From contig CM000436.1 in assembly GCA_000165345.1 (NCBI GenBank), positions 864,001 to 928,000 on the forward strand: a stretch of 64,000 bases of DNA, written 5' to 3'. Of this stretch, positions 42,001 to 48,000 are shown in pieces. Within the stretch, counting starts at the first letter, position 1; each line of letters opens with the position of its first letter. Made by a program: the position numbers.

Positions 42001-45000
42001 TCAATGGTTCCTACTGAACTAAAACTTAGCCATGATAAATCTTCTTGAGAGCTTGCTCCATTAATTAAGGAAGGAATTACAGAAGCATAAGCCGGATCTA
42101 AAACTCTAGACGGCAGAATTGCTTTTTTAAATGCTTCAAGAGAATCCCCTTCTTTTTTAACCGTTTCATCAATAAACCCAAAAGATAAAAACTCCTTGCA
42201 GTAAAGCCCAACGATTTCTTGAAAATCTTTGCTTTTTGAACCTAATATCGCAGGAAAGCTAATTAAGCACATCTTCATATAATACTTAAATTGAGAAAAA
42301 AGCATGCTATTTATAAATTTTGTGATTTTGGACATCCTTTCGGAAATAGTACTCTCTTCAACTGGAATGAACTTATTAACTAAGTAAGTCATACTTAATA
42401 CCATAGCTCTAATAATTAAAAAATTTTTTTCTGTAGCGGGATCTGCTAATGAAAAATTTATTGTTTTAGATGATAGTGATAATAACAAAGAGTGTCTTGC
42501 ATAATTTTTATGTTGTTCCACCTTTTCTTGGCCTTCAATATTAGAATAAGCATTATCAATCCTTTGCTGAAATTCTTCTTTTAAACGAAGATATGGGTCG
42601 GAAGAAAATTGATTAGATAACAGGCATTGACTCATACTTTCACAAATCTCTTGAAAGTTTGCATTAATTTGTTCGTCTGTTACAGATGAAACAGATCTAT
42701 AACAATTTTCAATTGTAAAGCTTTCATCTAGGTAACCCATTGTTTTAATAGCTGAACCGACAACATCTTGAAGGCTATAACTCATTAGCATGCCTGAAAA
42801 AAATGGCGCCATCCCAAAATGCATACAATGTATTAATTCCAAATACCAAATAGATGGAATCATACAGATTTCAATAGCAAAAGTCATTATTCGTTGGTAT
42901 GGCTCAAATGGCAATTTTGGAAGATTCTTATTAAAATGTTTACGCCTTGGAAAGTGTGTTTGAGACATATTAATTCGTGATCTAAAAAGACTATCTTCAG
43001 TATAAAACAAAAAATGTGCCGGACTCTTACTCTCTCGCGGAACATGAGTAATAAACTCTGAAGAAGGTGGAGTTTGATCTAAGTATTGACTCGATGAATA
43101 AAAAACTCTGTCACAAGATACTGACTGTTGAGGGTTTTCAAACGAGAAGTAATTTTCTGCACTTGAAGAAACAAAGTCATCCAATGACCCATTCAAAGAA
43201 TGTTGAGAAGACTCTATTACTAGCCGTAATAAACCATTTTCAAATGATTTAACATTTCTTATAAACATAAAGAGTAAAAAAATTAGTTGTCGGCAACGCA
43301 TATTTATGATTTTGAAATATTTTAGGCGTTTGACCTGGATTTCAGAATTTTTTTGCGCGCGTATTAATACCGTTTTCTTTTTTGAAAATCTAACAGATCT
43401 GTTTTCCTGATATTAAAATTGCCAGAAAAAAAAATCTGATTTTCTACTAAAAGCAATTTTGTTTAAACTATTTAATAATAAATTATTATTTTTGGTTACC
43501 CTATTTTAGAATTTGATTATTATTTTTAATCTATACCCAAATTGGATACAACCAAATAATAAAATTATAAATCTTAATTTATAATGTAATATTTGTTCGT
43601 TATTTTGTTCTGAAATCCTCTTTGAAAATTTTTTTCAAAATAATTGCCAAACACAAAAAATGAATTCCTTGGGAATATGATAGCAATTATTTGTTATTAT
43701 GGTATAGTGATATAGCTATTTCTCAACAAAAATCTTGTTTATACAGATTATTGCACGGGAAAACTTGTAGAGGTTTATTTCTTATGCTGTTCTATGCAAG
43801 CTTACCTAAAACATTAATTATTATTAAAGCCAAATCTATTAATATCACTTTCTGTACAATTATCAGTTTTATGTATAATTTTTGTTAATTTCTGGAACTT
43901 TGCAACTTCATATATGGAACTAATTTAATTTTTTTTTTCCAGTTACTGAAATAAATAAAAACTTTGACAAATACGTTTCAAAGCAAATATAGAAGTTTTA
44001 GTAAATACGGAGTTATGGTTCAAAATTTTACTTCGTGCAATGAAGAATGAGTTTATAATTTTTAGTTAAAAGGAATTTATCTAAAATTAATCTGACTATA
44101 CGTTTAAAAAAAAAGATTAGATATATTGAAAATTTCAAACTAAAATATTTCAACCCGTATAATATTCTTTATTTAAAACTTGTGTAATAATTACAGATAC
44201 AGTTTGCTTTAGTAGAGTTTCCAAAATTTGCTACAAGTATCAGCGAAACATATTATTTCCATTGTGCATGCATAGGGCGCCAATTTAGGAATTGATTTAT
44301 TTATCAATTATTGCAATGAAATTAATAAGAGATGAAATTATGTCATCATTGCTAACTTTTAAACTGATCCTATACTTACTACTATGATGAGCAGTATTAT
44401 TCTAAATATCTTAAAAATACTCATTATATTTGTATTGATTAATATTATTGGATCAGACTCAGGTGCAGTATCGAACCCATCCAAACAACAAAATAAATTT
44501 ACTAAATTAAATCAAGTATTTAAAAGAAAAAATAAACAATATTATGCTATTTCAAAAGATGGCTCTCTCATATTTCCTGCACTAAAGGCAATTTCTTCCA
44601 AGAATATTCCGCTTTTGAAAAATGTTAATAGCTTTAATAATGAATATGACGAAGGTAAGTTATTTATTAGTAGTTTTAGCTGATTTCTTACATTTCATAG
44701 ATATAATTAATAGAAGCCATGTATATATTATTAAAAATGGAGAAGTTCCTGGGTGGGATGGAATGAAAATACCAATACATTATTCCAGTGAGCATTCAAA
44801 ACTAAGATTGAAACCACCTGAAAAAAGCAGGTCAATTTCTATTTTCCCACCTGTTGTAGCCGAGAGGTAAGTAAAAATATTAATAAATAAATTCAAAATT
44901 GTTTATGTTTTTAGATTTATGTTATTTGCTTTAGAAGAATGCCTTCTTCCATCAAAGTTTTTTATTCAGGTTGCTTTTTGTACATTTGATGCAATTTATC

Positions 45001-48000
45001 CATTTTTAGAAGGTGTTCCTTCTGGAGAAGTAATGCAAGATATTGTAGGGGCAGCTATGTATTCGGTAAATAAAATAGGAGACGATTTTTCCTTTGATAC
45101 CAAATATTGCCGTAAAGCAATAGCAATGATTCCAGATTCACGTATAAACTTAGAAGTTGATTCAAAATGCAATGATATCTCTCTATGTATGCACCAAGAC
45201 CATTTTCCTCAATTATCACGTTCCCTAAGTGTATTTAATTTGGAACAATTAATAGAGAAATCGTTTATACTTCATGGTCTTGAGTATCAGCTCAGAGTGA
45301 GAAAACTTATTCAATCAATTCTTTGGAAAATAATTAAATCTGCCCATAAATCAAATATAAAAAGAGAGCATATGAATCCCAATAGACTTTTTTCAATAAT
45401 CAGAGCATATGTACTTACATTGTATATTAGACATTCGAGCCTAATTATTCCAGGATGGTATTTAAATAAATTTCCATCGGCAAAAAATTCATTATCATTT
45501 GTATATGTGAAAAATGAAGATTATACTGAACAATCTGCTTATATAAACTACTGTGCAAGAAAATTAAAATGGTGGTTAGATGCATTCCAACCAATTGTAT
45601 CACCGATTTTCCCGAATATGGATACCAAGGATGAGGTTTCAAGATCCGCATGCTTTCAAGCAGGAAGAGCAGGATTTGTAAGTAACGAAGAGTTTGACTT
45701 CTCAAATATGATCGAGGAAGGTACTGAAAGTGTTGATTTGCTGAACCTTCAACTTCCCATTATATTGAAAAAGTCAGAAGAGGAAATAAAGTATATAAGA
45801 AATAATAACTTAAGAAAAGCTCAAGAAAATAGAAAGTGGACTAGTCACTATGAGTCGTATCCATATTCATTAAATGGAAGAATGTTCCAGGATATTATTC
45901 ATGAAAAAGATAAACTTAACTTACAAAATTTAGCTCAAGAAGCCGAATTAAGCCAAGATAAGGACACTTTATTAGATGAAGTTAAAGATCTATTAGGAAG
46001 AAAAAAAAATGGTGATGAGCCATCTATTAAATATGAAAATATTTTTGATACAAATGGCAGAGAAAGTGACAAAAAAACGTCTTTCTCCCCAGTTGAATTT
46101 ATAGCTCAATTAAAGCAAGATAATATTGACTTAGAATCTCACGATGCAAACACGAGCAATATTTCCTATAAACCCAGAAGCATAATTAGAGATCAATTAA
46201 TTCAACCGCAAAGCACTCATTCTTTGAAACAGGGTATTTATGGAAATGCCATGGATGACACAAATTCTGGATTTGAGGAGGATGAAATCGAGGAATTTGA
46301 AGATGAAGATGAGTTTGAGAGTGAAAACGATAACAATTATTCTACAAAGTAATTAAATATATATAATACCTAAAGCAATTCAATTTTCAATTTCAGTCTT
46401 TGTTTATTCTATTTGTTTGAGATTTCGAATTATTATGAAATATACAGTTATGCATTTCCATTTCTCTGCAATTGCCCCATTCTACTGAATAAATTATTTC
46501 CAATTATACTTCCACTAATACCTAGTGTATTTCCTAAAGTACCTTTTATTCCGTTATTACAGTTGCAATTTCCATTGCAGCTAAGGTGACTTCCGTTTAT
46601 ATTTCCATTATTTAGAGGAAACCCATTATAAACACCATTACTTTGTTGAAAGCCTCCGTAGAAACCGTAGTCTTCGAATCCTCTTATTTGTTGCCCATTC
46701 ATAGGTTGTATTCTCGATCCAAACGGAATAGGGGAAATAAATGGAAGTACAACTGCCTGTACTAGAGCAAAACAACAACTACAAACGGCCAATGATATCT
46801 CTATGCATGCCATCCATTTCATAGTAGATCTCAATTTATCTAGAGGCGATCTATATTTTTTTCTTTTTTCTCTGAGTTCTTTCTCTCTCTTTTTAAGCAT
46901 TTTTTTTCTTTTCTTTCTTTTTTTCTTTTCTTTTTTTGAAAGTTTGCTATCGTCCATATCATCGTCAAGATATCTTCTTTTTAGTTTATTTCGTCTGTAG
47001 TTGATTTCGTTGTGATTAAGTTCATGAAAGCTCGCTAATGAACGGAAGTTTGGCTGGCTTTGAATGCCAAAGTTAACTCTTGAATTAGTATTCTCGAGTT
47101 CCAACTTATCTGTAATTTTTGATATGTTTTTAATATTGTATAGATCTTTTAGGTATATTTCGTCAGTTGAATTTCTATCTTGATTTATTATAAATGAAAG
47201 CTCATCAAATAGCTTGTTATTTTTATCTCCAAGAATGTAACATGTATGTGTTTTATTTACAAATTTAAGTGTATTTATTTGGTAATCACACTTTTCGTGT
47301 TCGTATGCCGAAGTTTCATTAAAATAAATATAATATAAGTTCATTTGCTCATCTTTCAAAATCTTTTCGTTTGTCAGGTTCATCTGAGCCAATATATCCT
47401 CAAATATACTATCTCTTATGGACTCTACATGCTTGACTTGGGCATGATCGATCGAGCTTGAATCTACAAAATTAAAAAAAATCAAAAAAGTAAGTATAGG
47501 AACTAATATTAAATTTGATTTCATTCTAACAGTGATGAAAGCTAGTTTGGCAAATTGCTCTCTACATACAATAGTTTTTCCTGATATTTTCATCTTAAAA
47601 AAATTTGTATGTCAAGTAATTCAAATAAATGCATAATATTTAACGGAACAGTCTGATTATTGCCTTGGGATCATAGAAAAAATTATATTTATTATGAGTT
47701 TTAATAATCTATAATTTAATAAGATTATAGAGTGTTTATGGATTATCTATTTTTCTCAGTCAATATCTATAGTTGAAAGAATATCTTCGAGCTGTTTTTT
47801 CAATCCAGAATTTGACGTCGAATTTGAACTAGCATAGCTTTCTATCTCTGTACTGTTGCTTTCATTTGATGTTTTGTTTGCAAAATTTTTTGGAACATCT
47901 AAACGGGTAACAACTGAACGGTTATTCAATATTGCTCCTTTATCACTAAACTGAACTTGCACTTTTTTCTTAGGAGATTGATTTTCTAAGGCTTTTTTTT

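Follow-up and report, generated by a model that had tools for sequence, protein, structure and literature searches.

Secreted-protein genes of the WYLE family form a cluster on chromosome 8 of Cryptosporidium parvum that has been described in the literature (PMC7371110), and the 64,000-nucleotide (nt) stretch analysed here (the window; GCA_000165345.1, contig CM000436.1, positions 864,001 to 928,000) is the site of this cluster. One of its genes, on the plus strand at 44384-46352 of the window, departs from its neighbours in its orientation, its two very small introns, the sequence KFFIQ at the place of the WYLE box and its acidic C-terminal tail. The question raised by this gene, here called the KFFIQ gene, is whether it is a cluster member that was inverted and remodelled recently or a lineage with a long history of its own. 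Comparison with its paralogs and with orthologous loci indicates that the KFFIQ lineage had most probably split off from the remaining WYLE genes by the time the sampled genus began to radiate, and that it represents an ancient, divergent sister lineage. The gene is already annotated and named in public databases and adds no new entity to them.

The KFFIQ gene and its annotation

Assembly of the open reading frames (ORFs) and splice sites at 44384-46352 (+) yields a three-exon gene with a spliced coding sequence of 1875 nt and a 624-amino-acid (aa) product free of internal stops. Its parts are listed below, where GC denotes guanine plus cytosine content and omega the ratio of nonsynonymous to synonymous substitution rates (dN/dS).

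44384..44654, plus strand: exon 1, 271 nt, with the start codon and the predicted signal peptide (residues 1 to ~23), through residue 90 and the first base of codon 91
44655..44700, plus strand: intron 1, 46 nt, phase 1, GTAAGT...TAG, 24% GC
44701..44866, plus strand: exon 2, 166 nt, residues 91-146 in part, holding the conserved motif VYIIKNGEVPGWDGMKIPIH
44867..44914, plus strand: intron 2, 48 nt, phase 2, GTAAGT...TAG, 12% GC
44915..45677, plus strand: first part of exon 3, the family core domain, residues 146-400 (alignments, AlphaFold2 and omega)
44955..44969, plus strand: KFFIQ, residues 160-164, homologous to the WYLE box of the paralogs (family alignment)
45678..45887, plus strand: post-core module, residues 401-470, FDFSNMIEEGTESVDLLNLQLPIIL...YIRNNNL, in a form specific to the acidic-tail lineage
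45888..46259, plus strand: region of variable sequence with many indels, residues 471-594, predicted disorder (identity, omega and AlphaFold2)
46260..46352, plus strand: acidic tail, residues 595-624, with 14 Asp/Glu and a net charge of -13 (charge count), and the stop codon

Exon 3 as a whole spans 44915-46352. Read unspliced, the gene meets a stop nine codons into intron 1 and one codon into intron 2, and removal of both introns, each with GT-AG boundaries, leaves a single open frame. The junctions 44655/44700 and 44867/44914, first proposed in an earlier note made from this DNA alone, are exact in the sequence, and the spliced product is residue-for-residue identical to QOY40122.1 (CPATCC_004205), WKS79618.1, WRK34120.1 and KAL5367099.1, four entries that carry the label 'putative Secreted Protein (WYLE gene family)'. 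The introns of the IOWA-ATCC re-annotation are, according to its authors, 100% supported by RNA sequencing (RNA-seq; PMC8744675), a general statement on annotated introns that gives indirect RNA-seq support to both junctions. Intron 2 splits the codon of Arg146, a nearly invariant residue at the start of the family core, and BLASTP alignments with the paralogs start in exon 2 and cross the intron 2 junction.

The 2004 Iowa II model XP_627250.1 (477 aa) corresponds to the long ORF of exon 3 alone. Models truncated to exon 3 or less occur in C. parvum Iowa II, C. tyzzeri, Cryptosporidium sp. chipmunk genotype I and C. ryanae (entries P0003, P0006, P0009 and P0013; locus L004 9304-10000), yet the C. 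ryanae locus, which was read, does contain exons 1 and 2. In the C. meleagridis model the chosen acceptor lies 6 nt 3' of the conserved site, so that the protein reads ...EYDEVDRSH. Deposited orthologs include a C. hominis 625-aa model (KAL31265xx-type; P0001), C. ubiquitum cubi_03586, C. muris CMU_006070 and C. andersoni cand_004630, together with a C. felis protein deposited as 'putative Secreted Protein (WYLE family)'; these share with the KFFIQ gene the three-exon structure, the synteny, the acidic tail and a box of the form KFF[IVL]Q or QFYLR.

Divergence from the paralogs and conservation among species

The window has a GC content of ~30% and presents a row of related ORFs with PSIWYLE products; its ORFs match CPATCC_004200, 004204, 004206 and 004207 and EAK89515-89521 of C. 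parvum exactly. The features on either side of the KFFIQ gene are as follows.

33955..35523, minus strand: canonical WYLE paralog CPATCC_004200, basic tail, +7
36268..37938, minus strand: canonical WYLE paralog, basic tail, +10
39654..41155, minus strand: decayed WYLE copy, interrupted by stops and frameshifts and carrying a deletion
41790..43301, minus strand: WYLE4 (cgd8_3560), the adjoining canonical paralog, basic tail, +4
43302..44383, no strand: intergenic region of 1082 bp, head to head with WYLE4 (from the coordinates of both genes)
46448..47593, minus strand: unrelated 381-aa gene CPATCC_004206, between the KFFIQ gene and the E-type WYLE gene
47756..49372, minus strand: E-type WYLE paralog CPATCC_004207, of the second ancient lineage

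All four intact paralogs lie on the strand opposite to the KFFIQ gene, as the earlier note had observed, and so does the decayed copy. The other intact copies are single ORFs, which leaves the KFFIQ gene as the only one with two tiny GTAAGT...AG introns. The replacement of the WYLE box is likewise borne out, residues 160-164 sitting under WYLE in the family alignment. The contrast in tail charge, described as one between an acidic tail and K/R-rich tails in every other copy, needs some correction: counted over the last 30 residues, the net charge of -13 differs clearly from the +7, +10 and +4 of the copies at 33955, 36268 and 41790, but the copy at 47756-49372 is not basic (-4).

Despite these differences the KFFIQ protein belongs to the family. 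It aligns with the four intact paralogs at 25-27% identity (BLASTP, E 1e-14 to 1e-15), and the homology of the core domain extends to its conserved cysteines: R146, P158 and C168 are nearly invariant, while D188, G191, C211, C231, C237, C359, C392 and GF399-400 are invariant in the family alignment. Canonical WYLE proteins such as WYLE4 likewise have a signal peptide and a homologous all-alpha core in which the Cys, Gly, Asp and Arg positions conserved in the KFFIQ protein are retained, and they are encoded in the same chromosome 8 cluster, where the KFFIQ gene lies between two WYLE genes both in the window and in six other species. The canonical genes differ from it in being intronless, on the other strand and equipped with a WYLE box and a basic tail, and the KFFIQ protein possesses in addition a conserved post-core module and a variable region of ~120 residues. 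It lacks the literal WYLE motif, KFFIQ occupying the homologous position, and is therefore classed as a divergent WYLE-like sister lineage, homologous to the family but not canonical WYLE.

The earlier note had called for a comparison with related species. At each orthologous locus read, in the gastric species C. serpentis and in C. hominis, C. meleagridis, C. ubiquitum, C. felis and C. ryanae, the gene is in the orientation opposite to its WYLE neighbours and between the same flanks. In these seven species, C. parvum included, the order is basic-tail WYLE copies (-), KFFIQ gene (+), an unrelated gene of 330-480 aa (-) and the E-type WYLE gene (-), an order that the C. muris locus tags CMU_006050, 006070 and 006080 also fit; the head-to-head arrangement is kept in the six species other than C. 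parvum. Both introns occupy the same positions in 6/6 of the species read, with matching phases in the 5/5 whose boundaries are exactly resolved. Exact boundaries and phases were obtained, C. parvum included, by rebuilding annotated proteins from the DNA of C. hominis (introns 1 and 2 of 46 and 48 nt), C. meleagridis (46 and 48 nt), C. ubiquitum (47 and 46 nt), C. felis (57 and 58 nt) and C. serpentis (112 and 198 nt); the junctions are annotated likewise in four of these and were also recovered in C. meleagridis. For C. ryanae, tblastn locates the three exons approximately, in three frames with GT-AG boundaries and with an intron at each of the two positions. When the DNA of four species is aligned, both GTAAGT donors and both AG acceptors are invariant and the intron interiors have diverged, with 62-70% identity to C. 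ubiquitum and C. felis and with indels and length changes that are not multiples of three.

The box and the tail are equally persistent. An acidic tail ends 10/10 orthologous sequences (net -8 to -25 over the last 30 residues), kept in composition and not in sequence, and occurs in eight species besides C. parvum. A non-WYLE box is found in all nine of the ten sequences that cover the region: intestinal species have KFF[IVL]Q, C. ryanae has KFYLQ and the gastric species have QFYLR. Orthologs exist also in C. andersoni and C. muris, and in C. andersoni both the acidic tail and the non-WYLE box were seen. The tails of the gastric orthologs are the least acidic (-8, -11), and gastric species carry a single basic-type copy at the locus, whose end is weakly charged (+3, -2).

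Substitution patterns indicate that the KFFIQ gene is functional and held under purifying selection. Whole-gene dN/dS is 0.62 against C. hominis, 0.34 against C. meleagridis and 0.24 against C. ubiquitum, values comparable to those of the paralogs, and the constraint is unevenly spread along the protein. Omega is 0.17-0.21 in the core (residues 146-400) and 0.07-0.21 in exon 2, and the protein sequence of exon 1 is conserved as well, at omega ~0.3 in the comparisons with C. ubiquitum and C. felis. Two comparisons of the post-core module (401-470) give omega of 0.07-0.24, and that with C. hominis gives 0.64 from very few substitutions; saturation of synonymous divergence (dS) leaves no estimate against C. 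felis. The identity of the module to the gastric orthologs, 41-44%, equals that of the core. Residues 471-624 show omega of 0.33-0.93 and many indels, and identity in the variable region (471-594) is 20-42% outside the closest species.

Age and origin of the lineage

A family-core profile search of 1.84 billion representative proteins found 24 proteins and recovered both types, KFFIQ and WYLE, at E below 1e-40; all matches whose source was checked are Cryptosporidium WYLE-type proteins except one, P0059. A homolog search with a family alignment returned only nine orthologs and did not return the paralogs. In a neighbour-joining tree of 43 sequences (profile matches and locus-derived sequences; 100 bootstraps, midpoint rooting), the family-wide phylogeny that the earlier note had recommended, the orthologs of the KFFIQ gene form a clade with 100% bootstrap support on a long stem, apart from the other WYLE genes; its internal order follows the species and it takes in the gastric C. 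serpentis and C. andersoni as well as the intestinal species. The E-type genes make up a second 100% clade, again with both gastric and intestinal members, and the basic-tailed genes comprise one gastric clade and many intestinal duplicates.

Because the KFFIQ clade includes gastric and intestinal species, its minimum age is fixed, and since orientation, introns, box and tail are common to both groups, these features were in place before the deepest sampled split. Any inversion or change of charge would thus be older than the deepest split of the genus sampled here, and its direction is not readable from these data. The sequence comparison points to a family of three lineages older than the gastric/intestinal split, namely an acidic-tailed, intron-bearing lineage in opposite orientation, the E-type lineage and a basic-tailed lineage. 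Expansion, by later duplication in tandem, and decay are limited to the last of these, one member of which has decayed in C. parvum. The E-type lineage (47756-49372; C. muris CMU_006050) resembles the KFFIQ lineage in being ancient and syntenic, with one copy per species in gastric and intestinal species, and differs from it in having kept the WYLE box, in being intronless and in lying on the minus strand; the extreme C-terminus of its proteins is near neutral, and an ending ...ILS.ID[IL][DE] is conserved in intestinal species.

This ancient separation has to be weighed against two other histories. The earlier note suggested that the gene acquired a new function after a local inversion. Spelled out as a recent event, a canonical basic-tailed copy would have been flipped in C. 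parvum or its close relatives and would then have gained introns, lost the box and reversed the charge of its tail. Within the window the KFFIQ gene is indeed the sole copy with all four features, but as a recent or lineage-specific event this scenario is very improbable, given that the four features and the synteny are present from C. hominis through C. serpentis, that the acidic tail and non-WYLE box extend to C. andersoni and that identity to the basic-tailed copies is only 25-27%; an un-inverted or unmodified state was looked for in the related species and was found in none from C. hominis through C. serpentis. The other suggestion of the earlier note, an older and more divergent founding copy, fares better in its first half, age and divergence being what the 100% clade spanning gastric and intestinal species displays. 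If it were the founding copy, the intron-bearing gene would retain the ancestral structure, and an intronless derivative, produced for instance when a processed transcript was reinserted or took part in gene conversion, would have been duplicated in tandem and have gained basic tails. The lineage is the only one with introns, Cryptosporidium shows a prevailing tendency to lose introns (PMC8744675), and the midpoint root falls between the KFFIQ clade and all others. The distant homolog P0059 also bears on it. This single-exon WYLE homolog of 510 aa (L007 6001-7533, on a 51.7-kb contig of the Logan assembly of SRR31860986), which could serve as an outgroup to the family, carries an acidic tail of net charge -14 and, at the box, the intermediate form QFYLE. 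It is nevertheless without introns, and the KFFIQ lineage is more distant from it than are the basic-tail copies and the E-type genes, the latter at 28-30% identity; midpoint rooting, used here in a tree with no true outgroup, is moreover sensitive to rate differences, and the introns may have been gained. We therefore regard an ancestral status of the intron-bearing gene as unlikely, if deserving of some weight. The P0059 contig has 48% GC, far above the window and the Cryptosporidium loci read, and the neighbours of P0059 contain no Pfam domains and do not match the window.

Two further alternatives concern the gene itself. Translation could begin at the ATG at 44622 in the frame of exon 2, with intron 2 alone removed and the upstream ORF of 99 codons falling outside the gene. 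This model is very unlikely to be right: in C. ubiquitum, C. felis and C. serpentis the frame runs into a stop before any ATG is met, the protein sequence of exon 1 is conserved at omega ~0.3, the GTAAGT donor is conserved in 4/4 aligned species and the curated C. parvum product includes exon 1. The presence of a truly decayed WYLE copy 3 kb away, together with the old Iowa II model that covered exon 3 alone, might also suggest a decaying, non-functional gene whose introns disguise frameshifts. This is hardly credible for a gene whose frame breaks exactly at conserved GTAAGT...AG pairs in seven species, whose core dN/dS is well below 1 and whose exons all lack internal stops.

Several considerations weigh against the interpretation of the KFFIQ gene as an ancient sister lineage or limit how far it reaches. 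The tree is a neighbour-joining tree rooted at its midpoint, and the long stem may mean faster evolution and not greater age. The RNA-seq support for the junctions is taken from the general statement of PMC8744675 and not from reads seen directly, and gene models of orthologs could partly have been copied between annotations; the arguments from reading frame and start codon, including that from C. ryanae, are independent of annotation. The identifier cgd8_3570, discussed below, was deduced from the order of the genes; what is said below on localisation, on disulfides and on the role of the tail is likewise inference, and the signal peptide is called from hydropathy only.

The protein, the cluster and the biology of the family

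Residues 1-30 provide the sole hydrophobic window with a Kyte-Doolittle value >1.6, as expected of a signal peptide, and AlphaFold2 models a helix at residues 2-22. The prediction for the full protein is confident for residues 141-400 only and low in the N-region and past residue 400. Modelled alone, the core reaches a predicted local distance difference test score (pLDDT) of 85.8 and a predicted template modelling score (pTM) of 0.88 and takes the form of a compact bundle of ~13 helices and one small hairpin. Six cysteines are conserved family-wide (Cys168, 211, 231, 237, 359 and 392), a pattern that fits disulfide bonding in a secreted protein. A Pfam scan of the KFFIQ protein, the paralogs and the neighbours detected no families, the KFFIQ protein has no significant sequence or fold match to known folds or domains in Pfam and the Protein Data Bank (PDB), and inspection of it by eye found no PEXEL-like RxLxE/Q/D motif.

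WYLE4 is the sole family member localised so far, and WYLE4-HA remains with the parasite or the parasitophorous vacuole, with no export into the cytosol of the host cell (PMC8687662). By analogy, the KFFIQ protein is probably secreted to the parasite or the parasitophorous vacuole. Its precursor would enter the endoplasmic reticulum (ER) by means of a cleavable signal peptide, the 255-residue all-alpha core would fold there, probably stabilised by disulfides between the six conserved cysteines, and the secretory pathway would release the protein to the parasite surface or the parasitophorous vacuole, as for WYLE4. If its partners differ from those of the K/R-tailed paralogs, the post-core module FDF..MIE.G...VDL.NLQ.P and the disordered acidic tail are the likeliest sources of the difference; the earlier note, too, had supposed that the reversed tail charge might affect localisation or partner binding. 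A speculative and, in our estimate, quite improbable extension is that the acidic-tailed protein is a dedicated partner of the basic-tailed WYLE paralogs, pairing electrostatically with their K/R-rich tails for packaging into secretory granules or as a heteromer at the interface of parasitophorous vacuole and host, and transcribed divergently with WYLE4 from a shared promoter region of 1.08 kb. Such a partnership would explain why there is one acidic copy per species while basic copies vary in number, and the weaker charge of both tail types in gastric species is a weak hint in the same direction. Whatever the partners, the 1082-bp spacer at 43302-44383 presumably holds the promoters of both genes.

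The decayed copy at ~39654-41155 is a sixth member of the cluster that the earlier note had left out. It shares 48% identity with an intact ortholog in C. ubiquitum (L002 3638-5275) and has at least five in-frame stops, at least two frameshifts and a 20-residue deletion that takes out the conserved C...GF motif. Intact counterparts occur in C. canis and C. ubiquitum. For C. hominis and C. meleagridis the annotations cover fragments only, of 107 aa and of 46 aa (cmbei_8003550) respectively, which places the decay before the split of these species. The copy appears to be cgd8_3550, which has been listed as a fast-evolving 'Kazal-like serine protease inhibitor' (PMC4637869), and its being a pseudogene would explain the high evolutionary rate.

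This assignment also bears on the name of the KFFIQ gene. With cgd8_3540 known as a WYLE gene (PMC10629705), the order runs 3530, 3540, 3550 (decayed), 3560 (WYLE4) and then the KFFIQ gene, and CPATCC_004205 is therefore very probably cgd8_3570. The key resources table of Dumaine et al. 2021 once lists WYLE4-HA as 'cgd8_3570 modified', but its reagents are for cgd8_3560 (PMC8687662). The published WYLE4 guide, repair template and integration primers (PMC8687662, supplementary file 1) all map to 41790-43301, the template encoding the C-terminus of that gene, and the published localisation is thus that of the neighbour and not of the KFFIQ gene.

Some other features of the window may be recorded here. 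The 381-aa product of CPATCC_004206, a gene that separates the KFFIQ gene from the E-type WYLE gene in all the species examined, begins with a signal-like segment, ends in a Gly/Asn-rich stretch, contains a K/R-rich block and a hydrophobic segment, and has no Pfam matches; its stop lies 95 nt from that of the KFFIQ gene, tail to tail, so that the 3' untranslated regions probably overlap. An island of 42-43% GC at 28000-32400, against ~30% elsewhere, coincides with a 1124-aa ORF (28960-32334, minus strand) that has no Pfam matches, and a 284-aa ORF lies within the island on the opposite strand. Housekeeping genes are found on both sides of the cluster:

17772-19460, plus strand: methionyl-tRNA synthetase, housekeeping context
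19647-20960, minus strand: RING-finger protein, housekeeping context
56408-60805, plus strand: sterol-sensing/Patched-type domain protein, housekeeping context

Cryptosporidium possesses other families of signal-peptide proteins that are named after short motifs, clustered and variable in copy number, such as MEDLE, SKSR, FLGN, GGC and NFDQ, and these are seen as candidate determinants of pathogenesis (PMC7371110, PMC8687662); the profile search of 1.84 billion proteins revealed no sequence relationship of KFFIQ or WYLE proteins to any of them. WYLE is itself among the few Cryptosporidium-specific secreted families treated as such candidates. The comparison presented here flags several truncated gene models in public annotations, and the three-lineage picture indicates which members of the family are likely to have conserved core functions and which are likely to be host-specific.

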